Assembly (NCBI GenBank): GCA_011391125.1
Contig: JAABRE010000004.1
Span: 26,921 to 90,920, forward strand
Direction of reading: 5' to 3'
Origin: Synechococcales cyanobacterium S06
GTDB lineage: Bacteria > Cyanobacteriota > Cyanobacteriia > Cyanobacteriales > JAABRE01
DNA length: 64,000 bases
Every line of letters starts with the position of its first letter. The first letter of the stretch is position 1. Both the position numbers and the translations under genes were made by a program. This document shows positions 27,625 through 47,203 of this stretch, in pieces. Below the pieces are notes generated by a model. It did no database searches. It was not told where the DNA came from and saw only the letters and a program-made list of their open reading frames with translations.

Positions 27625-27792
27625 GTTTGTAGTTGCGCTTTAGCGCTATAAACATATTTGTATCAATTTATACAGATTTTAAAGCAGGAATATGTATCTA
27701 AGATAGCGCTAAAGCGCAACAACGAACTTTTGGGGAGAATATGTAGCCAAGATAGCGCTAAAGCGCAACAACGAACTTTTGGAGAGAAGAAT
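27625..27792. repeat. Composite repeat block upstream of methyltransferase 2. It has an inverted pair GTTGCGCTTTAGCGCTAT / ATAGCGCTAAAGCGCAAC, the ATTTATACAGATTTT...GAATATGTAT motif, and a 49-bp direct duplication.
   Basis: GAATATGTA(TC/GC)...AAGATAGCGCTAAAGCGCAACAACGAACTTTTGG(G/A)GAGA occurs twice (about 27690-27738 and 27739-27787). The motif recurs at 29711-29775 and 31153-31200. Confidence 0.85.
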
Positions 27793-29607
27793 ATGGATAT
27801 TAATCAGTATCTTGAAAGTTTACAAGTTAATCTGAAAAAAGGCAGTGAAAGGAGTCATTATCCAGCTTTAAAAATGCTGATTGATGGGGGAATGATGGGG
27901 ATTAATGCGATTATTGAAGAAACCAAGAATCAAGCAGGTATTCCCGATTTTACGGTGAGAAAAAATGAGGTTTTGTTAGGGTATATTGAGGCAAAAAAAA
28001 TCGGGGAAAATTTAGCTAAAATTGAAAAAACGGAGCAAATTCAACGTTATTTAGATTCAGCAATTGGTCAAAATTTTATCTTAACTAATTATCTGGAATT
28101 TCGCTGGTATATTGATGGCAAACATCAGTTAACCACGGAAATTGGGACAATAAAACAAGATCAAATTATTATTAGTAATAACCTCGAAAAAACCGCCGAA
28201 TTGTTAACGTTTTTTCTGAATTATCAAGGGGAAATAATTAATAATCCCTCGGATTTAGCCCAACAAATGGCACGTTATACAAAAACGATAAAATATTCAA
28301 TTCAAGAAGCTTTAAGCAGCGAAACCGAGGAATTAAGCCAACTTAAAACCTTATTTCAAGAATTATTAATCCCTGATTTAGATAATAATAATTTTGCGGA
28401 TATGTATGCTCAAACCATTGCTTATGGATTTTTTACTGCTAGAGTTGGCCATGCCCAAAATCCGAGTCAATACCCCTTTAATCGACAAACTGCTAGTTAT
28501 TATATCACCGATAGAATACCGTTTTTAAAAGGTTTATTTACTACGGTGATTGCCACAGAATCAGCCACTAAAATTTGTTGGACAATTGATATTTTAGTGG
28601 AACTTTTGGCTAAAATTGATATGGGAAATATCCTCGAAAATTTCGGGCAAAAAACTAGACAATCTGATCCTGTTGTTCATTTTTACGAGACATTTTTAGC
28701 AAATTACGAAGCTTCTTTAAGGAAAAATAGGGGTGTGTATTATACCCCTGAGCCTGTTGTTGCTTTTATTGTACGAGCAGTAAACCAAATATTAGAAAAG
28801 CGTTTTAACCTAGAATTAGGGTTAGGAAATAAGCAGGTGACCATACTTGATCCTGCAACTGGAACTGGTACTTTTTTATATCAAGTAATTAAACAAATTT
28901 ACCAAAATTTAGAGGAATATGGATTGGCAAAAAATTGGGATAAATATGTTAAGGAATCTAATTTATTAAACCGTTTATATGGTTTTGAATTATTAATGAC
29001 TCCCTACACCATTGCCCACTTAAAAATAGGATTATTATTAGAAAATTTAGGTTATCAATTTCAAAATAAAGAAAGGTTAGGAATTTATTTAACCAACGCA
29101 TTAGATAAAGGTGTTAAGAAATCTGACTTAATTTTAGGGAAATATCTCTCAGAAGAAGCCAACCAATCTGCAGCAATTAAAACAGATAAACCGGTATTAG
29201 TGGTAATAGGAAATCCACCCTATTCTGGGGAGTCTGCTAATAAAAATAATCCTTGGATTGAAGCATTAGTTAAGGATTATTATTTAGTTGATGGTGTCTC
29301 TTTAAACGAAAAAAATCCTAAATGGTTACAGGATGACTACGTTAAATTTATTCGTTTTGGGCAATGGCGAATTGAACAAACTGGTTACGGAATCCTAGCT
29401 TTTGTAACCAATCATGGTTATTTGGATAACCCAACTTTTCGGGGAATGCGTCAGAATTTAGCGCAAACTTTCGACGAAATTCATATTATTGATTTACATG
29501 GAAATGCCAAGAAAAAAGAGGTTTCACCCGATGGAAAACCAGATAAAAATGTGTTTGATATTCAGCAAGGAGTAAGTATTGCTATTATGGTAAAATTTCC
29601 CAAGTAA
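27793..29607 (+). CDS. Type IIG/ISP-like restriction-modification enzyme (methyltransferase 2), N-terminal fragment with PD-ExK nuclease-like and gamma-class N6-adenine methyltransferase domains
   Basis: PD-ExK-like nuclease motif: IPDFTV...GYIEAKK. Motif I is LDPATGTGTFLYQ and motif IV is VIGNPPYSGES. The ATG at 27793 is preceded by GGAGAG. The ORF stops just after GVSIAIMVKFPK. Confidence 0.8.
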   Translation: MDINQYLESLQVNLKKGSERSHYPALKMLIDGGMMGINAIIEETKNQAGIPDFTVRKNEVLLGYIEAKKIGENLAKIEKTEQIQRYLDSAIGQNFILTNYLEFRWYIDGKHQLTTEIGTIKQDQIIISNNLEKTAELLTFFLNYQGEIINNPSDLAQQMARYTKTIKYSIQEALSSETEELSQLKTLFQELLIPDLDNNNFADMYAQTIAYGFFTARVGHAQNPSQYPFNRQTASYYITDRIPFLKGLFTTVIATESATKICWTIDILVELLAKIDMGNILENFGQKTRQSDPVVHFYETFLANYEASLRKNRGVYYTPEPVVAFIVRAVNQILEKRFNLELGLGNKQVTILDPATGTGTFLYQVIKQIYQNLEEYGLAKNWDKYVKESNLLNRLYGFELLMTPYTIAHLKIGLLLENLGYQFQNKERLGIYLTNALDKGVKKSDLILGKYLSEEANQSAAIKTDKPVLVVIGNPPYSGESANKNNPWIEALVKDYYLVDGVSLNEKNPKWLQDDYVKFIRFGQWRIEQTGYGILAFVTNHGYLDNPTFRGMRQNLAQTFDEIHIIDLHGNAKKKEVSPDGKPDKNVFDIQQGVSIAIMVKFPK

Positions 29608-29786: not shown

Positions 29787-31079
29787 ATGGCAAAAATATA
29801 TCATTTTGATTTGTATGGAAGTCGTCAAGATAAATATGATTTTCTTGACGCAAATAATATGGATACAATTGAATGGCAAGAAATTAAACCTCAGTCTCCT
29901 TTTTATCTATTTATTCCCCAAAATACTGATTTATTAGGCGAGTATGATTTTGGTTGGAAAATAACAGAAATTATGCCGATTAATTCGGTGGGAATTGTCA
30001 CCGCGCGAGATTCTTTAACGATTCATTGGAGTCAAGAATCAGTGGAAAAAACGGTTAAGGATTTTGTTAATTTACTAGAAGAAGAAGCGAGAAATAAGTA
30101 TGATTTAGGTAAAGATTCACGGGATTGGAAAGTAGATTTTGCTCAAGAGGATTTACGTCAAAGTGGTTTAAAAAAAGAGTTAATTGTACCGATTTTATAT
30201 CGCCCTTTTGACATAAGATACACTTATTATACAGGAAAATCAAGGGGTTTTCTTTGTATGCCTAGAAATGAAGTAATGAGAAATATATTAGGTAGGGAAA
30301 ATTTAGGATTAATAACAGTTAGACAAGTTGCAGAAGGGATTTTTAATCACAGTTTTGTTACTACAAATATTATTGAAAGTAGAATTACTGTTAGTAATAA
30401 AGGTATAGGTTTTATTTTTCCCCTTTATATTTACCCGAATACAGAAAATGAGCAGTCCAATTTATTTGAGCAAAAAAAGGCGAATTTTTCGGCTGAATTT
30501 TTAACAGCAATTAAGGAAAAAGTAGGGTATCTTCCCACACCTGAAAACATTTTTTATTACATTTATGCAATATTTCATTCCCCTAGTTATCGTCAAAGAT
30601 ACGCAGAATTTTTAAAGATAGATTTCCCCAGAATACCATTAACAAATAATGAGAAATTATTTCAAAAGTTAAGCGAAATTGGAGAAAAATTGGTTAATTT
30701 ACATTTGATGAAAATAAGCCCTCACCCCCCTTCCCCCCTCTCCCACAGGGGGAGGGGGGAATCTCTACCTCAGAATAAAGTAAGTTTTCATAGTGAAGGA
30801 GATAATTTAGTAAGTCAGGTTAAATATGATGCTAAAAAAGAGAGAATTTATCTCAATAAAGAAAGTTATTTTGCTAATATTTCTGAGGAGGTTTGGCAAT
30901 TTCAAATCGGTGGTTATCAAGTTTTAGATAAGTGGTTAAAATCCCGAAAAAAAGCCAATCGTGAGTTAACTTATGAAGACATTATTCACTATCAAAAAAT
31001 CGTAGTTATCTTACAGGAAACCATTAGATTAATGTCAGAAATAGAGCAAAATCTCGACTTCGGTCAGAGCTTTGCGTGA
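29787..31079 (+). CDS. Type IIG/ISP-like enzyme (methyltransferase 2), C-terminal fragment carrying the specificity domain
   Basis: IYAIFHSPSYRQRYAEFLKIDFPRIPLT and EVWQFQIGGYQVLDKWLKSR are hallmarks of the type ISP-like C-terminal domain as I remember it. It continues the fragment ending at 29607. Confidence 0.8.
   Translation: MAKIYHFDLYGSRQDKYDFLDANNMDTIEWQEIKPQSPFYLFIPQNTDLLGEYDFGWKITEIMPINSVGIVTARDSLTIHWSQESVEKTVKDFVNLLEEEARNKYDLGKDSRDWKVDFAQEDLRQSGLKKELIVPILYRPFDIRYTYYTGKSRGFLCMPRNEVMRNILGRENLGLITVRQVAEGIFNHSFVTTNIIESRITVSNKGIGFIFPLYIYPNTENEQSNLFEQKKANFSAEFLTAIKEKVGYLPTPENIFYYIYAIFHSPSYRQRYAEFLKIDFPRIPLTNNEKLFQKLSEIGEKLVNLHLMKISPHPPSPLSHRGRGESLPQNKVSFHSEGDNLVSQVKYDAKKERIYLNKESYFANISEEVWQFQIGGYQVLDKWLKSRKKANRELTYEDIIHYQKIVVILQETIRLMSEIEQNLDFGQSFA
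30719..30762. repeat. Type A-variant palindromic element in frame in the methyltransferase 2 C-terminal fragment
   Basis: GCCCTCACCCCCCTTCCCCCCTCTCCCACAGGGGGAGGGGGGAATC, translated as SPHPPSPLSHRGRGES. Confidence 0.85.
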
Positions 31080-31316: not shown

Positions 31317-34300
31317 TTAGGCTAATTTAGTGCCGCAACTACTACAAAAGTTGTTACTAATCGGGTTTTCTGCTCCACAATTGGGACAGAATTTAACAGC
31401 AGATTCTGTTTTTTCGGCTGGTTTTTCTGTCGGTTTTTCGGCTGGTTTTTCTGTTATATTTACCCCTGTATTTAAACGATATTTTTCAATTATTTCTAAG
31501 ATAATTGTTGCTTCTCTTTTATATTCTGGAGCATCTTTTCCACCCTGTTTTTCTAATTCTAAGGCGCGATTTTCTAAGTATTTTCTCAGTTTTAAGTATA
31601 ACTGTTGTTTTTGCGCATCTGTTTCTGCTTTTTCGATAACTTGGTTAACCTGAGTTTCGATTTTATTCTTATCACTTTGACAAGCTTTTATTTGTAAGAC
31701 TTGAACTGCATCTTCCCAACTAGAAGCGATGTCAATATTTTCACTTCCAATCGCAGTTTGTTGGGTATAACGAATCATTTTTTCTTTGGTTTTTTTGTTT
31801 TCTTCTTGACGCAATACCTCGAAAGCTCTTGCTTTTACTACTAAGGTAAAAATCTTCTCATCTTCGGGGAAAATATCCCAAAATGGCGGCTCTTTTTGAA
31901 GGTGTACAGGAATGGGTAAATCCCGATTTTCGCCTTTTTGTTGGGCGCGTTTAGCGATAATAAATTCCCCTTTCCAATCTTGATAATGTCCCCGTAATTC
32001 CTGCATTCCATCAATACAACGCAGGGAAAAACCGCCGATTTCCTGCACAAATACGATGCGATGATCTTCTAAGTTTCCTAATGGTTTAATATCATCATCT
32101 TTACTGATAAATTCCTTAATTTTGGGGATTAATTTTTGTGCCGCAGGATCACTGGTATTCCGACCACCAATTAAGGCAACATTGGTATTTAAAGCCGGAG
32201 TAAAACCAGCATCTTTAGCGTTTAAAATGGCTTTATTTAACACAATTAATGGAGTCGATTTTTGATACGCAAGGCGAATGTTATTTACAATATCGGCCTC
32301 GTTTGTATAAGTTTTGAATAGGCGATCGCAGGCCGATAATTCTGTTTTTAACTTACTATTTTCGGGAGCAGTTTCGATGACTTTTTTAGTGCGATTAAAG
32401 ATAATTTCTCGCAAATCTTCTTCTTGAACATCGGGAATGGCTGTGACATCAAAAAGTCGCATTATTTCATTACTGGTGCGAGTTTCTTTCCAAAAAGGAC
32501 TTGCTTTTTCTAAAATATCCCCCGACATTGTGCTACAAATTACATCTTTTCCTGTGTCAAATTGACTCTTATTACTAATAGTTCCACCTGCTAATCTTTC
32601 GATTAAATCTTGATACAAACTATTTAATTCTTTGCGTTCATAAAGTTTAATGCCGTTTATTTCCAAACTATCAGCACTATCCGCTTGTCTGTCAGCTTGC
32701 TCTTTAAAGAAATCACGACTATTAATTAATCTTTGTTTCCAACGATTATAACGGGTTTCTAAGGCGTTTAAAGCCTCTTGTAAACGTTCAATAACTTCTA
32801 AACCAACTGCTCTGAGTTTCCTCTGAATTGTAGCACCAAACCAGCCTTCTAAACCCTGTAAAGCCACATTACAATACTGCTCCATTTTCTCCTGTTTAGA
32901 AATACCAAATTTGTCTTTAAATTCGTTAATTTCTGTTAGTGCAGCTTCATATTGTCGCTGACGATTAGTCTCATTTGCTCCCCATAATTTATCCTGTTCT
33001 CTTCTGAATTTTTCGTAAGCATCATCAAACACTTGACGGACAGTAACCAGAAAAGCATCGGCAAATTTGGGGCCTTTGGTTCGATCTTCTAAAATTTTAT
33101 AGAACTCTTCTTCTAAAGCTTTTTTACCCCTCAGAATTGCCGCATCCCGATTGTTATAAATTACCTTAAAATAATCGCCATGAACTCGCTCATCAGGACT
33201 TAATTCTCGGAAATGATCCTGACGATAATTATCGACTTTTGGCTTTAAATAACTATCAACAAAAGAGAGAATTTTGCCCTTTTCTGAACCCAACATATTA
33301 ACGCCCTGTTGAGTACATTGTAAGAAATTGTCCTTATTAATTTCATCGCGAATACTATTAATCCATTCTGCAACTATTTGTAAATAAGGACGGTCGGCTG
33401 CAGCTCCTAAATCTGCTAATAATTCCATCTCAGTTAAGCGCATTTTCTTAAGAGTCTCACCCCGCACTAATTCTAACATTTGGGGCGGTAAAATTGCCGA
33501 ATCATTTAACCACCATTGCACCATGTCAGTAGCTAAACGATTACTTAAACAGGCTCTAATTTGATAAATAGGTATCTCAATTGTAGATAACCCAAAACTC
33601 ATAAACTGTTTTGAATAGCCTCGTCCCCCCGGATCAGCTTGAGCCCAAGAAGCCTTAATATTATCGCGAATTGAGCGTTTGTGTGCCGCAAATTCCGAGG
33701 TCATATCAAGGAAAATATTTTGGGCAATCATCTCCCGAATCTCGCCTAATTTAAAGCTTCTTTCTCCGTTTTGTGTACCCACTAAATAGGTAAAATCAAA
33801 GGGTGGTAAAGAATTATTAATTTCATCAGTCAAACTGTTAGTAAATTGCTGATTATATTGAGTGCGATAATCAGAAAAATAACTTAATTCCATCATCGCT
33901 GCGTAACCATTTGCTAACACCCGATCGCCCACACTAATATTAGCAAAAGCTTGGGGAGTGGGAACAATTGCAGTTACCAAAGAACTACTTGCTGTTTTCA
34001 ACCAGTTGCGCATACAATAGCCTAAATCTATTAACATTCCGCTACCTGTACCACCGGATAAAGAACCAGTAACAAACACATTAACTGCGTTTCCACTAAC
34101 TTTAATTCCGTAGCGATCTAACATAAAGTTTTCATGGCCCTTAACCCGATTAAGCGCATCGGAAAACTTACTTTCAATCTCCTTATAATTACAGAAAAAA
34201 GCGAAACGGCCACAGGCGCGAATTTGTCCGGCTCCTGCTTCTAAAGAAGTAATATTTCGCTCTAATTCGGTGGGAAACCAACTCTCAAGCCAAGGATAAT

Positions 34301-34571
34301 TATCCATATTATTAAGAATCTCTTGGACCTGTCTTCCACTTACCCGCGCCCAAAATTTTTCATTATCCTTAAAAGGTGTTCCCGAAGACTCAGGATTGGT
34401 AATTTTATAGCCTTGATCTGTGTCAATTACTAAAAAACTAAGAATGGGAAAATTCGCTAAACTTCCGTAAGTTTCCTCGACTAAACGACGTATTCTAGCT
34501 AATATTTCTGTACCTGTTCCTCCGATTCCAACTAATACCGTAGGAATCATACTTTTTTCTTCGACGGCCAT
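31317..34571 (-). CDS. Giant tubulin/FtsZ-like GTPase (~1085 aa) with a long helical region, a PAEK/PTEK linker and a C-terminal zinc ribbon
   Basis: T1-like VLVGIGGTGTE at the N-terminus and the tubulin signature-like GSLSGGTGSGM about 160 aa later. The C-terminus reads EKPAEKPTEKPAEK then CPNCGAENPISNNFCSSCG. I prefer the ATG at 34571 (AGGAG 7 nt upstream) over the ORF-track start at 34619. Confidence 0.7.
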   Translation of the reverse strand: MAVEEKSMIPTVLVGIGGTGTEILARIRRLVEETYGSLANFPILSFLVIDTDQGYKITNPESSGTPFKDNEKFWARVSGRQVQEILNNMDNYPWLESWFPTELERNITSLEAGAGQIRACGRFAFFCNYKEIESKFSDALNRVKGHENFMLDRYGIKVSGNAVNVFVTGSLSGGTGSGMLIDLGYCMRNWLKTASSSLVTAIVPTPQAFANISVGDRVLANGYAAMMELSYFSDYRTQYNQQFTNSLTDEINNSLPPFDFTYLVGTQNGERSFKLGEIREMIAQNIFLDMTSEFAAHKRSIRDNIKASWAQADPGGRGYSKQFMSFGLSTIEIPIYQIRACLSNRLATDMVQWWLNDSAILPPQMLELVRGETLKKMRLTEMELLADLGAAADRPYLQIVAEWINSIRDEINKDNFLQCTQQGVNMLGSEKGKILSFVDSYLKPKVDNYRQDHFRELSPDERVHGDYFKVIYNNRDAAILRGKKALEEEFYKILEDRTKGPKFADAFLVTVRQVFDDAYEKFRREQDKLWGANETNRQRQYEAALTEINEFKDKFGISKQEKMEQYCNVALQGLEGWFGATIQRKLRAVGLEVIERLQEALNALETRYNRWKQRLINSRDFFKEQADRQADSADSLEINGIKLYERKELNSLYQDLIERLAGGTISNKSQFDTGKDVICSTMSGDILEKASPFWKETRTSNEIMRLFDVTAIPDVQEEDLREIIFNRTKKVIETAPENSKLKTELSACDRLFKTYTNEADIVNNIRLAYQKSTPLIVLNKAILNAKDAGFTPALNTNVALIGGRNTSDPAAQKLIPKIKEFISKDDDIKPLGNLEDHRIVFVQEIGGFSLRCIDGMQELRGHYQDWKGEFIIAKRAQQKGENRDLPIPVHLQKEPPFWDIFPEDEKIFTLVVKARAFEVLRQEENKKTKEKMIRYTQQTAIGSENIDIASSWEDAVQVLQIKACQSDKNKIETQVNQVIEKAETDAQKQQLYLKLRKYLENRALELEKQGGKDAPEYKREATIILEIIEKYRLNTGVNITEKPAEKPTEKPAEKTESAVKFCPNCGAENPISNNFCSSCGTKLA

Positions 34572-34655
34572 TTTTTTACTCCTATTTAATTGTTTTGATT
34601 TTATCACGCAAAGAGGCAAAGGCGCAAAGGGGGTTTTCGGTTTGTTTACTAGATT

Positions 34656-35564
34656 TTAACAAGTTTTTATAAATGGTAAACTTAGGTTAAATATTTGGTA
34701 AATTCTCCATAAAATTCCGGGGGTTGCCGCAGTCCAAAATAAAGCGTTACATAATGCTAATCTCCCGGCTAAATTAAATGGCATTCTGAATAATCCTTGA
34801 AATAGCCATCGATCTAATGGCATAATTAATGTGTACATAAAAGCGATCCAAGCTAATCCTAACCAGAATAAAGTCCAACGCCAATTATTATTAAAACTGT
34901 CAAAAAAGTCCTTGGTAAATAATGTTTCTAAGTTATTTATATCCGCCGAAATATATTTTCCTCCTGTGGTAAAAGTAGCCGCTTGAATAATGGGCGCATT
35001 TGCTCCTATTACTATAGCATTAATACTAACTTTTTTGCTAATAGCTTGAGTTATTACTTCGGGAGAAATCATGGCTTCTCCATCTGTTACTAATAATAAT
35101 TCTCGACATCTTTCGGTAATTTTTGCTAAGGAGTTTGTACCTTCATTTATGGCTAAATCAAGGTTTGTTCCCCCACCAATAATATTAACTAATTCTGGTT
35201 TAATTGCGTTATTTAATTGTTGGAAAATAGCTTGACTATCACTACTAAAACTATTAGTTAAGGGTTGTATTCCACTCGCAAAACCAAACACTTGAATCTC
35301 GTTAGGTTGTTTTAAAATATCGGTGTTATTTTTGTTTAAATATGCTTGTACTGCGGTTATTTCTTGACTCATAATTGACCCCGGAGCATTGAATTGATTA
35401 GTATAAGTGCTACTACTCATGTCAATGGCGATCGCCACAGCAACGGATGGCCTACCAAAACCAAATAACCAAAATAAAAGGGCAATTGTTAGGAATAAAC
35501 CGAGAAACATTAAGGGAATTTGAAATAAGGGATATAACCAGAAACCCCGACGATAATTAGTCAT
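34656..35564 (-). CDS. Membrane-anchored von Willebrand factor A (vWA) domain protein
   Basis: N-terminal TM region, MIDAS motif AIDMSSSTY (DxSxS), LLVTDGEA, and about three C-terminal TM helices. It starts 6 bp after the GNAT toxin stop. Confidence 0.75.
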   Translation of the reverse strand: MTNYRRGFWLYPLFQIPLMFLGLFLTIALLFWLFGFGRPSVAVAIAIDMSSSTYTNQFNAPGSIMSQEITAVQAYLNKNNTDILKQPNEIQVFGFASGIQPLTNSFSSDSQAIFQQLNNAIKPELVNIIGGGTNLDLAINEGTNSLAKITERCRELLLVTDGEAMISPEVITQAISKKVSINAIVIGANAPIIQAATFTTGGKYISADINNLETLFTKDFFDSFNNNWRWTLFWLGLAWIAFMYTLIMPLDRWLFQGLFRMPFNLAGRLALCNALFWTAATPGILWRIYQIFNLSLPFIKTC

Positions 35565-35570
35565 ATTAGC

Positions 35571-36092
35571 TCAATTATTTTTTGGTTTAAACATTTTAAC
35601 AATTGTACTCATCGGTAAATAAAGTTGGTAAGGATTACTAGGAAAAGAAACAAATTGATGATATTCATAAAAAGCCTTAGCTTTATCCTTTTTAGCATCA
35701 ACAATTACTGCCATAGAAGCAATTTCATTGTTTAAATTACGTTGTAAACTATCCAATAATAAAAAACTACCCAAACCTTGACCTTGATATTTTTTTGATA
35801 CTGCTAATCTTCCTAATAAAGTAGCTGGAATTAAAGGATATTTAGGTAATTTTTGAGTAATTTTAGTGGGTAATTGCTCTAATTTAATGGCTGTTGCTGC
35901 TAAGGTATAATATCCAGCTATTTCCTTGTTATTCTTATTTTCTAAAACAAAAACCGTAGTTAAAAATCGCTTTAGATCTTGATTTGCTTGTTGGCTTAAA
36001 TACCGATTTAATGATTCAATTCCACAATCAAAATCTAAGCGATTATGTATTACTGATAGTGGTTCAATCACATAATTAAAATTAGGTCTCAT
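35571..36092 (-). CDS. GNAT-family acetyltransferase toxin (TacT/AtaT-like)
   Basis: FDCGIESLNRYL...IPATLLGRLAVSKKYQGQGLGSFLL...AKAFYEYHQF. It overlaps the upstream DUF1778-like gene by 11 nt. Confidence 0.8.
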   Translation of the reverse strand: MRPNFNYVIEPLSVIHNRLDFDCGIESLNRYLSQQANQDLKRFLTTVFVLENKNNKEIAGYYTLAATAIKLEQLPTKITQKLPKYPLIPATLLGRLAVSKKYQGQGLGSFLLLDSLQRNLNNEIASMAVIVDAKKDKAKAFYEYHQFVSFPSNPYQLYLPMSTIVKMFKPKNN

Positions 36093-36402
36093 TTTGTTCC
36101 ATTTCCTGTTGATAAAGTTGAGCCAATTTCAGCATTCTCTGATTAGGTGGAATCGGATTTATTAAAGATTCTGCTAAGGCTTGACTATCTTGTAAATTTA
36201 AGTTGATAATCTGATATTTTTCCATAATTTGATGTGCTTTTTCCTCTGCACTTCTGATCACAAAATCAGTAATAGTTATTCCTTCTAAATTGGCAGCCGA
36301 TTGTAATAATTCTTTTTCTTCGGGGGATAAACTAGCTTCTAAAAGCTCCTGTTTACTATTTTTTGTAAGCGGGTATATTAATGATTGTTCCATGGATTTC
36401 AC
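36082..36402 (-). CDS. DUF1778/RHH-type antitoxin (TacA-like) for the GNAT toxin
   Basis: 106 aa with ITITDFVIRSAEEKAHQIME, typical of DUF1778 antitoxins. It is paired with the GNAT toxin. Confidence 0.7.
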   Translation of the reverse strand: MKSMEQSLIYPLTKNSKQELLEASLSPEEKELLQSAANLEGITITDFVIRSAEEKAHQIMEKYQIINLNLQDSQALAESLINPIPPNQRMLKLAQLYQQEMEQNET

Positions 36403-36505: not shown

Positions 36506-38110
36506 TTACTGCAATGAATCAAACTGAAAATTTGAGCCCGGAGGTCCATTTTTTCCTTCAACTGCTTGCACTAATGGTACTTCATTGAAAATATTAAAAC
36601 TGGTGGTATTTCCACTAATCATCATACCCTGATTTAACAAAGTAGAAACACCATTTCTAGTGGGATTTTGACTAACTGCATCTGTTAATGCTTTAGTGGC
36701 ATCAAATGCTGTAGCAGTACGCCAACTAACCCTTCCTTTCCAGCTTGTAACGGCATCTTTGGCGAAGGGATCATTGGGTTTAAAACTCCATGGTACAGCC
36801 AATGTAATCCCTTTAATACTATTACCTCCCTGCACTAATAAATCAGGATTGTATAATTCATCGCCACCGATAATTGTCGCTTTATTACTGTTAGCTTGGG
36901 CAATTTTTATCGCCTCAGAAACTTTATTTTTACTCAAAGCTAACATAATCGTATTAGCTCCTGTCGCGCTATTTAATTCGGTAATTGGGTCACTATTACT
37001 AACATCAATTTCCTTAATTAATTTGCCATTAACAGTGGGAATTGCTGCCACTAATTCCTGTTTTAATTGCATACTATAGGGACTATCAGAATTATAAAAT
37101 ACTACCACTGCTGGACTCGCATTTTGTTTTTGTGCATAACCCAATAAAGTTTTACTTACTCCCTGTAAATAATTCCCTAATAACTCATTTTGTTTTTGAT
37201 CAATGGGAATTGTTTGTAATTTTCCATCGCTAGTAATACTGGTAGTTAAGGGTGATAAAGCGACTAAATCAGTACCCTTATATGTTCTTAAAGCTTGCTG
37301 ACTTCCGGGATCAATACCATAACCTACTACTCCTAAAATAGCCGGTGAATTTATTAAATCCTGCGCTATGGAAGCCGCTTTTAAGACATCACTATTATTC
37401 GCAATTACTACTTCTAAAAGTTGCCCCGAAGCCGAAGGAACTTTATTAAATTCCTCTTGTTGACTCGCCACGCCTCGCAAAATTTCCTTCGCAGAATCGG
37501 GATTATTACTAATAGGAGCAACCACGGCAATTGTTAACGGATTACCCGCTTTTCTTGCTTTTGCATTATTAAGATAAATCTTACTTTCGGGATCATTGGG
37601 GTCATTAGCAACGGCTTGTTGATAGGAGGCGATCGCACCATCCCAATTTTCTTGACTAAAAGCACTAGCTGCCGTCTGTTTAGTGGAATTTGCGTCTAAC
37701 AAAATCTTTTCACCCTGACTGATTAATTGTGCATTACTAGCCTGATTACTCAAGAAAACCCCCACATTGCCAGAATTACTATTGACAGGGGGATTGGTGG
37801 TATTAGTCGTATTCGGGGAATTGCTGGCGGTTGGTTCTTCACCGGGTTTGGACAGCATTCTTACCCCTGTAAAAATCAAGCCACCTAAAACCAAAATTGC
37901 TGCGGCAATCACGCCAATTTTGACTAATTGGGAATTATCCGCCGCAGAAGTCGAAGATGTCGGCTTACCTTTTTCCATAGCTTCTTTGGGCAAGCCACAA
38001 ACAGCACAATCTGAGCCAAAATTTTCGTAGGGTTCATGGGCACCGGTACAATTAGGGTAGTCTTTTCCGTCTTTGGGGTTTCCGTCACATAGCCAAGATT
38101 GTAAAGCCAT
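36506..38110 (-). CDS. Membrane-anchored protein with a Cys-rich zinc-ribbon-like N-terminus, one TM segment, a TPR-like segment and a periplasmic binding protein (type 1, Leu/Ile/Val-binding-like) domain
   Basis: N-terminal CDGNPKDGKDYPNC...CAVCG, TM segment VIAAAILVLGGLIF, YQQAVANDPNDPESKIYLNNA, then a long PBP-like region (TIAVVAPIS...). Confidence 0.55.
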   Translation of the reverse strand: MALQSWLCDGNPKDGKDYPNCTGAHEPYENFGSDCAVCGLPKEAMEKGKPTSSTSAADNSQLVKIGVIAAAILVLGGLIFTGVRMLSKPGEEPTASNSPNTTNTTNPPVNSNSGNVGVFLSNQASNAQLISQGEKILLDANSTKQTAASAFSQENWDGAIASYQQAVANDPNDPESKIYLNNAKARKAGNPLTIAVVAPISNNPDSAKEILRGVASQQEEFNKVPSASGQLLEVVIANNSDVLKAASIAQDLINSPAILGVVGYGIDPGSQQALRTYKGTDLVALSPLTTSITSDGKLQTIPIDQKQNELLGNYLQGVSKTLLGYAQKQNASPAVVVFYNSDSPYSMQLKQELVAAIPTVNGKLIKEIDVSNSDPITELNSATGANTIMLALSKNKVSEAIKIAQANSNKATIIGGDELYNPDLLVQGGNSIKGITLAVPWSFKPNDPFAKDAVTSWKGRVSWRTATAFDATKALTDAVSQNPTRNGVSTLLNQGMMISGNTTSFNIFNEVPLVQAVEGKNGPPGSNFQFDSLQ

Positions 38111-38181: not shown

Positions 38182-38793
38182 CTACCTAAAATTTGCCAAA
38201 TTACTTATCAAATTTTCACTATTACTAAAATAATTAATGTTTAATCTATTAAATTCAGCTTTAACTTCTGAGGTGTTAAATTGTTGAGTATTAGCACTGA
38301 AAAATAACTTTTCTAAGTCCTGATTTTTGGCAGCATGATTAAGAATAGATTGCAAAATTAAATTATCCCTAATTTCCTTATCTTTTTTCAAAAGTGGATT
38401 AGTTAAAGTAGTTTTTATTTCACCAGATTGAGGAATAATCCAGTTAACTTTAGTTTCCAAAAGAGAAACGGTATCAATAAATTTAGATTGAAAATTATTA
38501 AAAAGTTCCCCATAAGCTAACCTAGATTTTTTAAGAAAAGCTACAGTATTTAAGGACATTGATAGATTAACTTTACGTTGAGCTTCATTTATTTCAATGC
38601 TTAAAGATTGCAAAAACTGTTTTTGTCTTTTTTTCTCGTTTTCTAAAGCTATCATGATTTCTAAATAACAAATACTAGGCATAAATAAAGCAACTTGCTC
38701 AGGAAAATTATTTAGTAAAAAATCACTCTGAGTATCTCTACCTGTAGCGATACCCAGAATAAAATTAGTTTCAGTGTATAAAATTACAGTCAT
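38182..38793 (-). CDS. Hypothetical protein, possibly a PIN-like nuclease fold with a coiled-coil insertion
   Basis: The N-terminal strand VILYTETNFILGIA resembles PIN beta1, with E in place of the usual D. Later acidic positions occur at CYLEIM and DNLILQSIL, and LFFSANTQQF is also present. Weak; by eye only. Confidence 0.3.
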   Translation of the reverse strand: MTVILYTETNFILGIATGRDTQSDFLLNNFPEQVALFMPSICYLEIMIALENEKKRQKQFLQSLSIEINEAQRKVNLSMSLNTVAFLKKSRLAYGELFNNFQSKFIDTVSLLETKVNWIIPQSGEIKTTLTNPLLKKDKEIRDNLILQSILNHAAKNQDLEKLFFSANTQQFNTSEVKAEFNRLNINYFSNSENLISNLANFR

Positions 38794-38795
38794 AA

Positions 38796-40557: not shown

Positions 40558-42156
40558 TTACACGGTCAAACTAACAGGAGTTCGAGTTTGTTTTAGTTCC
40601 ACTTCTAAAGGTTGAATCAAAGATTTACCTTTCATCTCTTCCGGTTGAGGTAACTGCAAAATTTCGAGGATTGTTGGGGCAACATCCGCCAAACAGCCAT
40701 TTTCCCTTAATTTCACATCACCACCATGACCCGCAATTTTCCGTTGTTCTCCTTCCACCAGAATAAACGGAACGGGGTTCGTTGTATGTGCCGTCCAAGG
40801 GTTGCCTTCTTCATCTGCCATGTATTCCGCATTACCATGATCCGCTGTAATTAACACCGTACCACCTGCTTTACTAACCGAATCCAACAAACGGCCCAAA
40901 CATCGATCCACGGTTTCAATGGCCATGACCGCTGCTTCCATATTTCCTGTATGCCCAACCATGTCGGGATTAGCATAATTGATCACAATTAAGGAGTAAA
41001 TCTCCTTATTAATACCGCGACAAGCGACATCTGTCACCGCTTCCGCTGACATGGCCGGAGCGCGATCGTAAGTGGAAACCATGGGGCTTTGAATCATCTC
41101 CCGATCTTCCCCCGGGTAAGGTTGCTCTAAACCACCATTGAAAAAGTAAGTCACATGGGGATATTTTTCCGTTTCCGCAGTTCTAAGTTGCTTTAAACCA
41201 TGATTAGCGATAACTTCACCCAAAAGATTCGTTAAAACTTGAGGCTCAAAAGCAACCTGAGCGGGAATTGTCGGATCATATTGGGTGAAAGTTACCAAGT
41301 CTAAAGGTTCAATCTTGGTTCGCTCGAACCCATTAAAATTATCGCTCACAAGGGCATAACAAAGCTGCCTAGACCGGTCAGGACGAAAATTATAGAAAAT
41401 CACTCCATCGCCAGCTTCAATCGCACCTGGTGCAATTCTGATCGGGTTAATAAACTCATCAGTAATTTCTTCAGCATAACGGGCTTGCAAAATTTCCCCA
41501 ACAGTACGGCCATCACCTGGACCATCTTGGGTCATCACGTCGTAGGCTAATTGCACCCTGTCCCAACGGCGATCGCGATCCATGGCAAAATAACGACCAC
41601 TAAGAGTTACAATTTTACCAACACCGATCGCCTCAATATAGCCTTGAATATGAGCTAGGGCATGAATCCCCTCATGGGGGTTAGTATCGCGACCATCCGT
41701 AATCGCGTGAATGCAGACCGACGACACCGACTGACTTTTAGCTAATTGCAATAAACCCTCTAAATGGCTTAAATGAGAATGTACCCCACCCTCAGAACAT
41801 AAACCAATTAAATGTAACTTTCCTCCACGGGAATTGACCTTTTGACAAATTTCCACTAGAGCCGGATTTTGCAAGATCGAACCGTCTTCCACTGCGTCGC
41901 TAATGCGCACTAACTCCTGTGGTACAATGCGACCAGCCCCTAAATTGAGATGGCCCACCTCAGAATTCCCCATTTGTCCATTGGGTAAGCCAACAGCTTT
42001 CCCCGAAGTATTAATTAAAGTATGGGGATAAACTGTCCATAAACTATCCATTACAGGTGTATTTGCGGTAGAAATAGCGTTAGCTTTGGTCGATTCCCGA
42101 TAACCCCAGCCATCTAGTATAACTAGGACTACTGGTGATATAGGTTCTTCTCTCAT
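40558..42156 (-). CDS. gpmI: 2,3-bisphosphoglycerate-independent phosphoglycerate mutase
   Basis: VLVILDGWG, GNSEVGHLNLGAGR and ADHGNAE signatures. 532 aa. Confidence 0.95.
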   Translation of the reverse strand: MREEPISPVVLVILDGWGYRESTKANAISTANTPVMDSLWTVYPHTLINTSGKAVGLPNGQMGNSEVGHLNLGAGRIVPQELVRISDAVEDGSILQNPALVEICQKVNSRGGKLHLIGLCSEGGVHSHLSHLEGLLQLAKSQSVSSVCIHAITDGRDTNPHEGIHALAHIQGYIEAIGVGKIVTLSGRYFAMDRDRRWDRVQLAYDVMTQDGPGDGRTVGEILQARYAEEITDEFINPIRIAPGAIEAGDGVIFYNFRPDRSRQLCYALVSDNFNGFERTKIEPLDLVTFTQYDPTIPAQVAFEPQVLTNLLGEVIANHGLKQLRTAETEKYPHVTYFFNGGLEQPYPGEDREMIQSPMVSTYDRAPAMSAEAVTDVACRGINKEIYSLIVINYANPDMVGHTGNMEAAVMAIETVDRCLGRLLDSVSKAGGTVLITADHGNAEYMADEEGNPWTAHTTNPVPFILVEGEQRKIAGHGGDVKLRENGCLADVAPTILEILQLPQPEEMKGKSLIQPLEVELKQTRTPVSLTV

Positions 42157-42249: not shown

Positions 42250-42377
42250 TTACGCTTCGAGGACAAAGGCGCTAAGGGGTTGATCTGTTGGCTGTTTAGT
42301 TCTGGGTTTCTTTCTCACGCAAAGGCGCTAAGGCGCAAAGGGGTTGATCTGTGGGCTGTTTAGGCCTCGGTTTCTTT
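42250..42377. repeat. Tandem 64-bp duplication containing the CGC(A/T)...AAGGCGCTAAGG...GGGGTTGATCTGT repeat. The second copy includes the last codons and the stop of methyltransferase 3.
   Basis: GGGGTTGATCTGT occurs at 42276 and 42340, and GCTGTTTAG at 42291 and 42355. Related CACGCAAAG...GCGCAAAGG copies lie at 23183-23215, 31095-31140 and 34592-34632. Confidence 0.8.
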
Positions 42378-44312
42378 GATTTCTATTTTTTTTATGATTT
42401 TTACGGTTTCGACACTGACTGTTGTTACTCTCATTAATAAGTCGATCGCCTGTTCTTTGTAGTCAGCAAAATGATAGTTATTAAATTTTTCGGCGATCGT
42501 TTGATCCTTGGGTTTTTTCTCTTTATATTGGTCTAATATCCACTCAATTGCACTACGATTTCCTAATTGATATTCCCACGCAATATTCGGGACATTTTCT
42601 AAGGTTGTCACCTCATCAATTAATATTTGACCTTTGGTTTTATCTGCTTTTAATTTGGGTTTTATAACCCCCCAACCCCCCTTGGAAAGGGTGGCTTTTT
42701 GTTTCCCCCCTTGAAAGGGGGGGTTGGGGGGGGTAAGATCAATTCTCTTTAATTGATAAGGTGTAATACTCTCATAATTTAGGTGTAATTCCATTAATTG
42801 TTTACCCCATTTTACCCACTGATAAAAGTCTTCATAAAAGGGTATTCTTGGGAAATCTCGCTTTAAATTTAACTCATATTTTTCCCGATATTTAGGGTTA
42901 TGTAAAACTGCATAAATATAATGAAATATGTCGAGTTTAGTGATTTCCCTCTCCCCCAACTTTTCTCCATTGGCGAAATTAGCCCTCACCCCCAACCCCT
43001 CTCCCACAGGGTGAGGGGAGCTAGAATTGTCTGAAAGTCTTCTCCCCCCTCTCTCTGAGAGAGAGGGGGGGTGGGGGGGTGAGGGTTGATAATAATCCCT
43101 AAACTGCTGTAATCCCCAATCGGTAATATTTTCCTGTTTATTTCCCTCTTCATCATAAGTATATAAGGGTAAACATTGACTATCACCTGTAAAATGATAA
43201 TCCATAATTATATTTGATACCAAACAGTAAAAAGGTTGATTAACGCTTTTTTCGGCTAGACAAATAACAAGATTATCTTTTTGTAGATCTTTCCCAAATA
43301 TATCATAGTGATTAAATGTCAATCTATCAGATAAACTCTTGTCACTATAGTAATTTTTCTTAACAAAAGGTCGATAATAAAGATTAACAATTAAATTAGA
43401 ATCAAATTTTAATTGGTTAAAATTTGATAAATTTTTCTTTAAAGTTTCACTCCATTTAATTTCATAATTAACAAAGTTATTTATATTAGATAGATTATTT
43501 TGTTTAGATCTATCAATATCCTGGTTATAAATTTTAATAAAATATTTAATTTTTTCTACTAATTGCCATAAATCATAATCATAAACCCAATCATCTCGAT
43601 TTGATTTTACTGCACTTGTATAAAGTTTAAAAATTGCTTTTTGTTTATCTACTTTTTTCGCTAATTTTGTTTCCTTATTTGCTAAAGGTAATAAACTATC
43701 AAAATCATTATCTGCTGCTAAATTAATCCAATTATTATTTTGATCAGGTTGTATATGTTCAAAATGAATTTGCTCAAACTTATGACTTGCTAAAAATTGT
43801 AACTTTTCTTGACCACTATTTAAGTTTGTTAAAGAATTATAAAATATTTGACATTTTTCCCTCACCCCCAACCCCTCACCCTCTGGGAGAGGGGAGTCGG
43901 ATTTTTTCACAAAAAATAAAATAGCAACCCCTACCATAATATTAAAAACGTTTCCTGTGGTATCTCCTGCGCGAATATTTCCTCCTAAATCTATCACATA
44001 AATATAATCAAATTCATCCTGAACAACCTTCCTAAAACCGTCAAAAGTACGCGCATTTATAAAGGAATTATTTGTTATAAATGCGATAATTCCCTTATCA
44101 CTAATGCGATCACTTGCCCATCTTAAAAAACGAGCATACATATCATAAACTTTCGTTTTTTGAGCGGTACTTTCTTTGATATAAGTATCTTTAATTCGCT
44201 TATCTATGGCAGGATATTCCCTATTTTTGTTGTTATCATTTTCGTTTTGTTGGTTAGCATTGTAGGGAGGATTACCAATAATTACTGATATTTTACGGTC
44301 ATTTTGTCGCAC
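42360..44312 (-). CDS. Type IIG/ISP-like enzyme (methyltransferase 3), distal part with methyltransferase motif IV and the specificity domain. It is separated from the proximal part by a single in-frame TGA.
   Basis: Motif IV is VIIGNPPYNANQ. IYAVLHNPKYREKYELNLKRDFPRIPF and IAWEYQLGNRSAIEWILDQYK are also present. The apparent GTG start at 44312 is in the same frame as the upstream ORF. Confidence 0.8.
   Translation of the reverse strand: MRQNDRKISVIIGNPPYNANQQNENDNNKNREYPAIDKRIKDTYIKESTAQKTKVYDMYARFLRWASDRISDKGIIAFITNNSFINARTFDGFRKVVQDEFDYIYVIDLGGNIRAGDTTGNVFNIMVGVAILFFVKKSDSPLPEGEGLGVREKCQIFYNSLTNLNSGQEKLQFLASHKFEQIHFEHIQPDQNNNWINLAADNDFDSLLPLANKETKLAKKVDKQKAIFKLYTSAVKSNRDDWVYDYDLWQLVEKIKYFIKIYNQDIDRSKQNNLSNINNFVNYEIKWSETLKKNLSNFNQLKFDSNLIVNLYYRPFVKKNYYSDKSLSDRLTFNHYDIFGKDLQKDNLVICLAEKSVNQPFYCLVSNIIMDYHFTGDSQCLPLYTYDEEGNKQENITDWGLQQFRDYYQPSPPHPPSLSERGGRRLSDNSSSPHPVGEGLGVRANFANGEKLGEREITKLDIFHYIYAVLHNPKYREKYELNLKRDFPRIPFYEDFYQWVKWGKQLMELHLNYESITPYQLKRIDLTPPNPPFQGGKQKATLSKGGWGVIKPKLKADKTKGQILIDEVTTLENVPNIAWEYQLGNRSAIEWILDQYKEKKPKDQTIAEKFNNYHFADYKEQAIDLLMRVTTVSVETVKIIKKIEIKETEA
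42667..42736. repeat. Type C elements (CCCCCC-TTGAAA-GGGGGG type hairpins) in frame in methyltransferase 3
   Basis: AACCCCCCAACCCCCCTTGGAAAGGGTGG...CCCCCCTTGAAAGGGGGGGTTGGGGGGGG, translated as TPPNPPFQGGKQKATLSKGGWG. Confidence 0.85.
42982..43086. repeat. Type A plus type B elements in frame in methyltransferase 3
   Basis: GCCCTCACCCCCAACCCCTCTCCCACAGGGTGAGGGGAGC ... CCCCCCTCTCTCTGAGAGAGAGGGGGGGTGGGGGGGTGAGGG, translated as PSPPHPPSLSERGG...SSSPHPVGEGLGVRAN. Confidence 0.9.
43859..43901. repeat. Type A-variant element in frame in methyltransferase 3
   Basis: CCCTCACCCCCAACCCCTCACCCTCTGGGAGAGGGGAGTCGGA, translated as SDSPLPEGEGLGVRE. Confidence 0.85.
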
Positions 44313-44352
44313 CCCCCCTAACCCCCCCTTTCAAGGGGGGGAAGGGGGGGTC
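44310..44352. repeat. Type C element that supplies the in-frame TGA splitting methyltransferase 3
   Basis: CACCCCCCCTAACCCCCCCTTTCAAGGGGGGGAAGGGGGGGTC. On the minus strand the reading is ...ETPPSPP-TGA-KGGLGG-V(GTG)RQND. Confidence 0.9.
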
Positions 44353-45755: not shown

Positions 45756-45859
45756 TTTTAGTAAGACAAATAGGTTAACTTGTTTATATTAGCATACTAA
45801 GTTATTTACAAGAATGTTATAATCATTGCTTGTCTTTTATTTTTATTTTTAAAGAAATC

Positions 45860-47203
45860 ATGACGACTAAATCTCGCAATTATCATATTCAAACGTTTGG
45901 CTGTCAGATGAATAAGGCCGATTCTGAACGGATGGCCGGTATTTTAGAAAATATGGGTTTTCAATGGTCTGAAGATCCGAATAATGCTGACCTGATTCTC
46001 TATAATACCTGCACGATTCGGGATTTAGCGGAACAAAAAGTCTATTCCTATTTGGGTCGTCAAGCCAAAAGAAAACAGAAACAACCCGACTTAACTTTAA
46101 TTGTGGCTGGTTGTGTAGCTCAACAGGAAGGGGAGCAGTTGTTACGTCGCGTTCCTGAGTTAGACTTGGTTATGGGTCCTCAATATGCTAATCGTTTGGA
46201 GGACCTTTTGGAGCAGGTTTTTGCGGGGAGTCAAGTTGTTGCGACTGATCCAGTGCAGATTTTTGAGGATATTACCAAACCCCGTCGTGACAGTGAAGTT
46301 ACTGCTTGGGTTAATGTGATTTATGGTTGCAATGAACGTTGTACTTACTGTGTTGTTCCTTCGGTTCGCGGTGTGGAACAATCCCGCACTCCTGACGCGA
46401 TTAAAGCGGAAATGATTGAATTGGGTAAGCAAGGTTATAAGGAAATTACTCTGTTAGGGCAGAATATTGACGCTTACGGCCGTGATTTGCCGGGGGTTAC
46501 AGAAACTGGCCGTCATTTACACACTTTGACGGATTTGCTTTACCATGTCCACGATAGTGAAGGTGTGGAAAGGATTAGGTTTGCGACTTCCCATCCTCGT
46601 TATTTTACCGAAAGATTGATTACAGCTTGTCACGATTTACCCAAGGTTTGTGAACATTTTCATATTCCTTTTCAGTCGGGGGATAATGACATTTTGAAGG
46701 AGATGAAACGGGGTTACACGATTGAAAAATATCGCAGTATTATTGACAAAATTCGTAATTGTATGCCGGATGCTTCTATTACTGCCGATGCGATCGTTGG
46801 TTTTCCGGGCGAAACTGAGGCCCAGTTTGAAAATACTTTAAAAGTAGTCGAAGATATTGGTTTTGACCTCTTGAATACTGCGGCTTATTCCCCTCGTCCT
46901 GGTACTCCTGCCTCCGTCTGGGATAATCAATTGAGTGAGGAAGTCAAGGGCGATCGCCTACAAAGATTAAATCATCTGGTTTCCCAGAAAGCCATGGAAC
47001 GCTCCCAACGTTATTTAGGCCGTGTTGAGGAGGTGTTAGTGGAGCAGGTTAATGGTAAAGATACCACCCAAGTTATGGGAAGAACAAATGGCAATCGGTT
47101 AACATTTTTTGCCGGTGATATTGACAATTTAAAAGGAAAAATAGTCAAGGTAAAAATTAATGAGATTCGGGCCTTTAGTTTAACAGGGGAAATGGTTAAT
47201 TAA
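45860..47203 (+). CDS. miaB: tRNA-2-methylthio-N6-dimethylallyladenosine synthase (radical SAM methylthiotransferase)
   Basis: [16 protein letters not shown], the radical SAM motif [13 protein letters not shown], and a C-terminal TRAM-like domain. I prefer the ATG at 45860. Confidence 0.9.

Follow-up and report, generated by a model that had tools for sequence, protein, structure and literature searches.

The stretch of DNA considered here (the window) comprises 64,000 nucleotides of contig JAABRE010000004.1 from the assembly of Synechococcales cyanobacterium S06 (GCA_011391125.1; contig positions 26,921 to 90,920, forward strand), and all coordinates are counted from its first letter. Three genes on its minus strand are the subject of this analysis: gene 1 encodes a membrane protein with a zinc motif and a solute-binding domain, gene 2 a membrane protein with a vWA domain, and gene 3 a large tubulin-like GTPase. 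The pair of genes 2 and 3 belongs with high confidence to the cyanobacterial FtsZl1 (Tubulin_2)-vWA operon family, and all three genes probably form one functional module. They lie as follows:

36506..38110, minus strand: gene 1, 534 aa, with matches to a zinc motif, a transmembrane (TM) segment, a tetratricopeptide repeat (TPR) and a LivJ-like domain
34656..35564, minus strand: gene 2, membrane vWA protein, 302 aa, from the open reading frame (ORF) translation, hydropathy and the Pfam match of an orthologue
34572..34655: spacer between genes 2 and 3, 84 bp, with a copy of an octamer element at 34605..34635
31317..34571, minus strand: gene 3, FtsZl1/Tubulin_2 family protein, 1084 aa, from the ORF translation and PF13809

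An earlier sequence-only reading had presented genes 2 and 3 as an undescribed two-gene system in a defence-island setting. Both genes are real, the 84-bp spacer does contain a dispersed repeat, and the motifs quoted in that reading are all present except for the spacing of the terminal zinc ribbon, which was given as x11 and is CPNCG-x9-CSSCG in the sequence.

The open frame of gene 3 reaches upstream to a TTG at 34619. The ATG at 34571 is the likely start, because orthologues begin with MA(I/T)(V)EEKSM and a GGAG lies 8 nt upstream of this ATG. The protein matches the Pfam model PF13809 (Tubulin_2) with 367.4 bits against a curated cut-off of 27 (E 1.1e-109), with residues 12-351 covering profile positions 1-355 of 356. 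Read from the translation, a T1-type motif (VLVGIGGTGTE) is located at aa 12-22 and a T4-type motif (GSLSGGTGSGM) at aa 169-179. The corresponding GTPase loops are T1 GIGGTG (aa 15-20), T3 GAGQIRACGR (aa 113-122) and T4 GGTGSG (aa 173-178), and the GTPase family signature GGGTG(S/T)G plus a T1 loop is present in the form of SGGTGSG (aa 172-178) and GIGGTG. An alignment of 45 sequences spanning 33-70% identity shows G173 to G178 to be invariant and the GTPase motif residues in general to be invariant or nearly so; D234, which follows a predicted helix at 215-233, is also nearly invariant. T3, T4 and S5 can be aligned to E. coli FtsZ with hhalign.

The fold of the protein was predicted with AlphaFold2 (AF2) from the same alignment, and the full-length model has a predicted local distance difference test score (pLDDT) of 84.9 and a predicted template modelling score (pTM) of 0.71. 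A Foldseek search of the PDB with this model returns CetZ2, CetZ1, alpha/beta-tubulins, gamma-tubulin and OdinTubulin at probability 1.00. With 350-377 columns (about 360-377 for the tubulins), the alignments take in the CetZ chains from end to end; the match to CetZ2 (4b45_A, a chain of 334 residues) has an E-value of 8e-6 and a TM-score of 0.49 relative to the target over 351 columns. The model predicts that the head of gene 3 has the complete two-domain tubulin fold, with both the GTPase and the activation domain. The tubulin/FtsZ GTPase fold proposed from the sequence is upheld by the profile and structure searches alike, as is the statement that this is not the cell-division FtsZ: a Pfam scan at E <= 0.01 finds only Tubulin_2 and zinc-ribbon families and no Tubulin (PF00091), FtsZ_C or Tubulin_C, and the gene is not at a division locus. 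A sequence search for relatives of solved structure gave none, except for chance matches to zinc ribbons, and hydropathy gives no hydrophobic membrane segment in the protein. The regions of gene 3 are:

33492..34550, minus strand: tubulin/FtsZ-fold GTPase region, aa 8-360, from Foldseek, hhalign and conservation
32667..33263, minus strand: long helical stalk, aa 437-635, from DSSP on the AF2 model
31467..32654, minus strand: family-specific, conserved C-terminal alpha/beta region, aa 640-1035, from conservation
31401..31454, minus strand: disordered (P-A/T-E-K)n linker, aa 1040-1057, from sequence and a pLDDT below 50
31323..31391, minus strand: C4 zinc ribbon CPNCG-x9-CSSCG at the C-terminus, from PF13240 (Zn_Ribbon_1), E 4.5e-8

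The stalk consists of helices at residues 466-495, 500-551 and 559-635 with a pLDDT of about 90, including single helices of about 50 and 77 residues. The C-terminal region that follows contains the strongly conserved motifs GGRNT, ERH, GGFSLRC and YQDWKG, and the linker to the zinc ribbon reads TEKPAEKPTEKPAEK. The last roughly 25-60 residues differ among GTPase orthologues that are 62-71% identical, and can be a C4 zinc ribbon, a SHOCT domain (PF09851) or a GYF_2 domain (PF14237; P0005, P0047, P0087 and P0095 are among the orthologues with this exchange), which suggests that the C-terminus is an exchangeable adaptor module. A search with gene 3 finds 429 homologues, the best 120 of which are 60-90% identical over 95-100% of the length, with all the named ones being cyanobacterial. 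Between cyanobacterial orders the identity of the GTPase remains at 60-70% throughout its roughly 1100 aa, and the mean column identity is 72%. A search with just the head domain collects 4,934 clusters at 50% identity (E <= 1e-3).

In Pfam, the “FtsZ-like” proteins of Makarova and Koonin 2010 are represented by Tubulin_2 (PMC9871819). By definition, FtsZl1 proteins measure about 1000-1100 aa and carry an FtsZ-like GTPase domain at the N-terminus, then an extended coiled coil, then a helical domain at the C-terminus; they occur in most bacterial phyla and some archaea, with vertical inheritance within the cyanobacteria (PMC2875224). Most of the predicted FtsZl1 operons contain a vWA gene, the commonest partner, whose product is often membrane-bound with an intact metal ion-dependent adhesion site (MIDAS); Ser/Thr kinases, a divergent GTPase and OmpA-like proteins also occur as partners (PMC2875224). 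Gene 3 has this architecture, with its head at aa 8-360, helices of 50-77 residues at 466-635 and the C-terminal region at 640-1035 in the AF2 secondary structure, and it shares its strand with a vWA gene 84 bp away. It is 66% identical to the protein of Gloeothece (Cyanothece) PCC 7424, 64% to that of Cyanothece 51142 and 60% to that encoded on the N. punctiforme plasmid pNPUN01, in each case over 95-100% of the length. These orthologues were tied to PCC7424_5168, cce_1067 and Npun_AF098 through organism name and protein length instead of accession, with the coordinates of the record as a further criterion for N. punctiforme. All three are listed in Additional file 1 of the 2010 study together with MAE_54080, tll1020 and glr0982, and no member from Synechococcus, Prochlorococcus or Synechocystis appears in that list (PMC2875224). 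The pair Npun_AF097 (a 298-aa vWA protein) and Npun_AF098 (a 1108-aa FtsZl1) is found in the same tables (PMC2875224, Additional files 1 and 5), and the RefSeq names of these N. punctiforme genes are “vWA domain-containing protein” and “tubulin-like domain-containing protein”.

The system is therefore not undescribed, as the sequence-only reading had it: the family, its architecture and its vWA partner were published by comparative genomics in 2010, with the same pair in the tables (PMC2875224). What is added here is modest and consists of a recurrent solute-binding partner with a zinc motif, a probably periplasmic vWA domain, a predicted complete tubulin fold and the apparent insertion of a toxin-antitoxin (TA) pair. 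The triplet of COG0683, vWA and FtsZl1 genes in Arthrospira is in the supplementary table of 2010, and the text is silent on it (PMC2875224).

The product of gene 2 begins with a TM helix, followed by the vWA domain with a full MIDAS, two further TM helices and a conserved terminal cysteine. Hydropathy places TM1 at about aa 9-36, TM2 at about 229-249 and TM3 at about 265-286. This bears out the N-terminal TM region described from the sequence, but gives two C-terminal helices where about three had been claimed. No linker separates the vWA domain from the membrane on either side. The motif stretches of the MIDAS are AIDMSSS (D48, S50, S52) and LLVTDG (D161), and its central element is

35409..35423, minus strand: MIDAS motif DxSxS, D48-M-S-S-S52 of gene 2, from sequence and conservation

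Across 119 homologues the residues D48, S50, S52, T133 and D161 are 99-100% conserved. Gene 2 itself matches a Pfam vWA model below the curated cut-off (VWA_3, 21.5 versus 27 bits); a 55%-identical orthologue at locus L005 passes it (VWA_2, 34 versus 27 bits), and many homologues carry a precomputed PF13519 annotation. In total 262 homologues were found, which are 50-86% identical over the full length, and the named ones are cyanobacterial.

The topology of gene 2 bears on every model of its function. Averaged over the 119 homologues, the 8-residue N-tail contains 2.40 Lys and Arg residues and the TM2-TM3 loop 2.08, compared with about 1.05 in the C-tail and beside the vWA domain. This concentration of positive charge in the N-tail and in the TM2-TM3 loop favours an orientation in which the N-terminus is inside and the vWA domain, like the C-tail, lies outside, in the periplasm. 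The loop itself is conserved and rich in Arg and Trp (PLDRW...R). Two cysteines are nearly universal, with C153, which lies within the vWA domain, found in 119 of 119 homologues and C302, the last residue, in 118 of 119; both would be on the same predicted outer side, where a disulfide is possible.

Gene 1 is a third conserved gene, which the sequence-only reading overlooked in describing two. From the N-terminus onwards its product has a cytoplasmic Cys/His zinc motif, one TM helix (aa 60-87 by hydropathy), a low-complexity linker rich in Pro, Thr and Asn, a TPR (by Pfam) and a type-I periplasmic solute-binding domain. Its most constant part is

37985..38095, minus strand: N-terminal zinc-binding motif of gene 1, aa 6-42, from conservation

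The motif reads W-x-C-D-G-x-P-K-D-G-K ... H-E-P-Y-E-N-x-G-x-D-C-x-x-C-G-L-P-K-E and is matched by no family in NCBIfam. Residues 215-458 match the branched-chain amino-acid binding protein 3hut_A of the PDB (E 3.4e-5), and the Arthrospira orthologue matches the LivK-like family NF011933 of NCBIfam (E 5.8e-19); the orthologue from Gloeothece PCC 7424 is 51% identical. The solute-binding domain is LivJ-like with a TPR in the window and PstS-like in other lineages, and the zinc motif is kept in about 35 related loci whichever class of solute-binding domain comes after it. Such a change of domain class behind a constant zinc motif is what would be expected of a sensor.

Gene order was compared across 86 related loci, 6 from genomes (found with a single-protein query) and 80 from metagenomes, of which 46 usable loci were left after dereplication at 90% identity. 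A vWA gene is located directly upstream of the GTPase gene and on the same strand in 28 of the 46, including a clade of only 39% identity, so that the adjacency asserted for the two families holds up in other genomes. In 22 of the 46 loci the vWA gene is in turn preceded by a homologue of gene 1, and in 5-6 others such a homologue directly precedes the GTPase gene without a vWA gene. At 2 loci the vWA protein is reduced to its C-terminal TM hairpin beside the GTPase gene; such TM2-loop-TM3 remnants without a vWA domain were seen in L003, L004 and L077. The three-gene order is kept in the Arthrospira/Limnospira/Trichodesmium clade, which is only about 39% identical, as well as in Gloeothece PCC 7424 and on the N. 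punctiforme plasmid pNPUN01.

In the window the three genes are not contiguous, as a TA cassette is found between genes 1 and 2:

35571..36402, minus strand: GNAT/TacA toxin-antitoxin cassette, from Pfam
35571..36092, minus strand: GNAT toxin (Acetyltransf_10, 33.5 bits; Acetyltransf_7, 32.2 bits)
36082..36402, minus strand: TacA/DUF1778 antitoxin (TacA1, 77.5 bits)

The two genes overlap by 11 bp in an arrangement that appears to be of the TacA-TacT type, and the GNAT gene stops 6 bp ahead of the start of the vWA gene. In related loci the gap between gene 1 and the vWA gene is about 20-90 bp and contains no TA pair. To judge from this comparison the pair is an insertion that splits the module between genes 1 and 2 and not a member of it, since the other loci have only the short spacer there.

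Several loci have features of their own. The module on pNPUN01 (L094, record positions 132368-143897), a conjugative megaplasmid, consists of PstS-like solute-binding, vWA and tubulin-like genes and is immediately preceded on the same strand by CHAT-domain and caspase-family genes. In Cyanothece ATCC 51142 the GTPase gene is standalone and has a DDE transposase directly upstream (L092, 5973-6956). In roughly a dozen loci, among them L009, L048, L057, L003/L004/L077, L024, L030 and L066, the flanks contain a Ser/Thr kinase, an FHA-FHA-ABC transporter (ABC-2 type), a trypsin-like protease and the circadian oscillating protein COP23. The window has none of these recurrent genes. The kinase and FHA neighbours suggest phospho-regulation of the module, and the recurrent kinases fit the kinase association reported in 2010 (PMC2875224). 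A GTPase orthologue of 67% identity is found on a contig (L001) with the record title “Candidatus Gracilibacteria bacterium SU_1_2”. Its neighbours, read from translations, are cyanobacterial-looking (TPR-CHAT-like and CHASE2-GGDEF-like), and the label of this metagenome-assembled contig looks like a binning error.

The best overall explanation for these findings, and one that is somewhat more probable than all others together, is a sensor and anchor that spans the envelope and is coupled to a tubulin-like GTPase in the cytoplasm. From domain content and gene linkage onwards we infer each step. The periplasm-facing solute-binding and vWA/MIDAS domains would bind a ligand or a component of the envelope. 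With the vWA domain outside, the GTPase could be contacted by no other parts than the zinc motif of gene 1 and, in gene 2, the PLDRW...R loop, and these two elements would recruit or regulate it in the cytoplasm. The retention of the TM hairpin in loci that have lost the vWA domain fits a contact with the GTPase through the TM2-TM3 loop as the only such part of gene 2. The GTPase would bind GTP via its intact T1, T3 and T4 loops and may assemble under the membrane through its tubulin-like head and its stalk, and this assembly may organise or remodel the membrane or envelope locally, in line with the membrane-remodelling machine that was proposed for FtsZl1 in 2010 (PMC2875224). In some genomes Ser/Thr kinase and FHA signalling might control the assembly. 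While the existence of the three-gene module is probable, its specific mechanism is tentative. In its most definite form the mechanism would be a ligand-gated cytoskeletal switch spanning the envelope, in which the periplasmic solute-binding protein and the vWA/MIDAS domain gate GTP-dependent assembly via the zinc motif and the TM hairpin. This form is unlikely as it stands, but it would be the first bacterial tubulin-fold polymer directly coupled to an extracytoplasmic receptor, and it would give the FtsZl1 family a concrete, testable role, of which none has been known since 2010.

A number of observations count against the coupling of an envelope sensor to a polymerising GTPase. The hhalign alignment of gene 3 to E. 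coli FtsZ ends at S5, and the T7 catalytic loop is not aligned by sequence. T7 is the loop needed for polymerisation-coupled GTP hydrolysis. The authors of the 2010 study could not trace the sequence beyond helix H5, leaving T6-H7 unaligned, and doubted that the family forms filaments (PMC2875224). The C-terminal ~400 aa of gene 3, modelled alone (pLDDT 71.7), gave no PDB match at E < 0.9, and in the published literature no experimental study of any FtsZl1/Tubulin_2 member was found. The topology of gene 2 rests on hydropathy and a count of charges, and if the vWA domain is cytoplasmic, the MIDAS could contact the GTPase directly. Neither partner adjoins the GTPase gene in 10 of the 46 loci; the partnerless genes include all 16 contigs of a cluster of ~66% identity that matches Microcystis orthologues, and an 86%-identical relative is also without partners beside its GTPase gene. 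In Gloeothece citriformis PCC 7424 an ISL3 transposase cuts the vWA gene at about residue 210 and the GTPase is intact (L093, 4372-6198). Finally, the locus is patchy and mobile and sometimes lies beside mobile or conflict-type genes, namely TA and restriction-modification (R-M) genes in the window, transposases in two reference genomes and the CHAT and caspase genes on pNPUN01.

The strongest rival builds on the partnerless loci. It holds that the GTPase acts alone or with partners encoded elsewhere and that the vWA and solute-binding genes have separate tasks, for instance in nutrient uptake or adhesion. Besides the Microcystis-matching cluster and the 86% relative, the standalone genes of Cyanothece 51142, tll1020 and glr0982 speak for it, and so does the insertion in PCC 7424, which interrupts the vWA gene and spares the GTPase gene. 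A vWA orthologue from apparently the same stromatolite metagenome as the 86% relative, probably from the same organism, is unlinked to the GTPase gene and adjoins amt, uppS, cdaA and lysA. Yet the same order and strand with short spacers are seen in 28 of 46 loci and across clades that are only 39% identical, and vWA genes accompany FtsZl1 in many other phyla (PMC2875224). The TM hairpin stays beside the GTPase gene where the vWA domain has been lost, and the vWA family, whose named members are all cyanobacterial, is conserved about as much as the GTPase. Independent function of the GTPase is unlikely.

A second rival keeps the vWA protein and dispenses with the periplasmic sensor. Here, a cytoplasmic vWA domain would tether the GTPase to the membrane by coordination of an acidic residue through the MIDAS metal, and the solute-binding protein would have no direct part. 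The MIDAS is fully conserved, vWA domains are commonly metal-dependent protein-protein adaptors (PMC2875224), and a domain that abuts the membrane on both sides without a linker would suit such a tether. The distribution of charge, however, favours the N-terminus inside and the vWA domain outside, two invariant cysteines are on the predicted outer side, and the domain is dispensable in the loci that keep only the TM hairpin. A cytoplasmic tether is distinctly improbable.

The third rival is the defence reading, which the sequence-only account had put forward: an anti-phage or anti-plasmid conflict system in which invasion would be sensed by the vWA and solute-binding parts at the envelope, and polymerisation of the GTPase would stop the infection or kill the cell. 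It originates in the neighbours of the module, which are as that account had described them, with the GNAT/DUF1778 pair 6 bp from the vWA gene, a split type IIG gene convergent with gene 3, a PIN gene and a second split type IIG gene:

27658..29607 and 29787..31079, plus strand: split type IIG R-M gene, convergent with the 3' end of gene 3
38182..38793, minus strand: PIN_12 domain protein, 203 aa, from Pfam
42360..45755, minus strand: second split type IIG/ISP gene in two ORFs, from a library scan

The first split gene matches the PADLOC model PDLC03610 over model positions 2-495 and 658-1073 of 1096, and both type IIG/type ISP-like genes look like pseudogenes or frameshifted genes. [quoted passage not shown]

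A survey of the module and its relatives does not bear out this role. At E <= 0.01 no family of PADLOC-DB v2 matches the products of genes 1, 2 or 3, and among the module and its neighbours in the window only the R-M genes were matched. For 143 flanking proteins from 32 loci, PADLOC and Pfam gave nothing more specific than generic matches to kinases, ABC ATPases and proteases, each in 5-7 proteins, so that no consistent siting beside defence genes emerged among these loci, as judged without a formal background comparison. The closest relative, of 90% identity, lies between psbEFLJ/ycf48/rubredoxin and rsmB/rpsB/tsf/recG, a neighbourhood of photosystem II genes, ribosomal genes and recG in which TA and R-M genes are lacking, and the GTPase gene of the 86% relative is found among folK, Nudix and two-component genes; there, both this gene and the unlinked vWA orthologue have housekeeping neighbours. 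Plasmids hardly ever carry the family (11 of 72,556 records), and neither do phages, where tblastn gave one weak partial match to the GTPase and structural searches matched only viral FtsZ/tubulin proteins over the head. An identity of 60-70% over the full length across orders was judged unusually conservative for an immune protein, and the sensors are LivJ-like and PstS-like domains for small solutes. The apparent defence context of the window is the product of the TA insertion and of what look like R-M pseudogenes next to the module; the R-M and PIN genes are incidental. The locus is not a universally conserved, syntenic core locus of cyanobacteria either, but patchy and moving around, and for this reason defence is to be called unsupported rather than formally excluded. 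Overall, a conflict system is the least probable of the explanations and very unlikely.

The proposed envelope-spanning sensor coupled to a tubulin-like GTPase can be compared with several known systems. Nothing essential sets it apart from the FtsZl1-vWA operons, which have the same family, architecture and MIDAS/TM vWA partner (PMC2875224). With CetZ, FtsZ, tubulin and OdinTubulin it shares the predicted fold of aa 8-360 and the T1, T3 and T4 loops, but gene 3 is only 10-15% identical to these proteins and has about 700 extra residues in the stalk and C-terminal domain. It further differs from canonical FtsZ in its position away from a division locus. TubZ and PhuZ, the tubulins of plasmids and phages, are likewise divergent tubulin-fold GTPases outside cell division; gene 3, by contrast, is chromosomal, three times larger and associated with membrane proteins, and there is no DNA-binding adaptor or centromere. 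The pairing of a vWA protein with an NTPase is also known from TerF/TerY of the Ter system and from MoxR-vWA pairs, and the vWA proteins of the Ter system are proposed to form structures below the membrane (PMC7824862). The partner here is a tubulin-fold GTPase instead of an AAA+ MoxR protein, Ter genes are missing, and the vWA domain is predicted to be periplasmic. By analogy, the combination of a large GTPase, a long helical stalk and a proposed action on membranes may recall the bacterial dynamin-like proteins, from which gene 3 differs in its tubulin fold and in having neither a paddle nor a TM segment in the GTPase.

No new kind of system thus emerges from the window. Within the tubulin superfamily FtsZl1/Tubulin_2 forms a large branch, and its size and the question of its function keep it of interest. 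The comparison of loci defines a compact cyanobacterial version of three genes with an obvious sensor, which is available in tractable or sequenced hosts (N. punctiforme with pNPUN01, Gloeothece PCC 7424 and Arthrospira), and it corrects a tempting mis-filing of the module as a defence system.

Among the remaining neighbours, a 151-aa protein without a Pfam match precedes the PIN_12 gene (together 38182-39251, minus strand). Both genes are located between gene 1 and the gene for a predicted metallopeptidase-like protein, and they may be another TA-like pair. Two housekeeping genes lie farther upstream of the module:

40558..42156: gpmI
45830..47203: MiaB-like radical-SAM gene

On the other side, a 725-aa protein (25431-27608, plus strand) has an N-terminal membrane region and long C-terminal pentapeptide repeats (ANLSGANL...). 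Weakly similar pentapeptide proteins occur near the module in L063, L065 and L068, which is probably a coincidence, as such proteins are abundant in cyanobacteria.

The spacer between genes 2 and 3 contains no terminator-like site on the minus strand, and a promoter and terminator scan of the module did no better than on shuffled sequence and is uninformative on co-transcription. The octamer-repeat element in this spacer reads CACGCAAAG AGGCAAAG GCGCAAAG. Within the window, CACGCAAAG occurs 6 times versus 0.25 expected, and the two-unit octamer pattern 8 times versus 0.16 expected. The element is dispersed between genes, has a length of ~33 bp and consists of three GCAAAGNN octamers followed by GGGGG(T); it possibly represents a cyanobacterial short-repeat family. 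Its four copies are:

23182-23206: octamer element
31109-31141: octamer element, just past the end of the R-M gene
34605-34635: octamer element in the spacer of genes 2 and 3
42316-42340: octamer element

A different repeat follows gene 3:

31211-31292: 36-bp tandem repeat, 2.3 copies with 97% matches, 25 bp downstream of the stop codon of the GTPase gene

Each of its 36-bp units, which have no other occurrence in the window, contains an imperfect inverted repeat, GTGCGTTAA...TTAATGCAC, and the array could be a terminator or a small mobile repeat.

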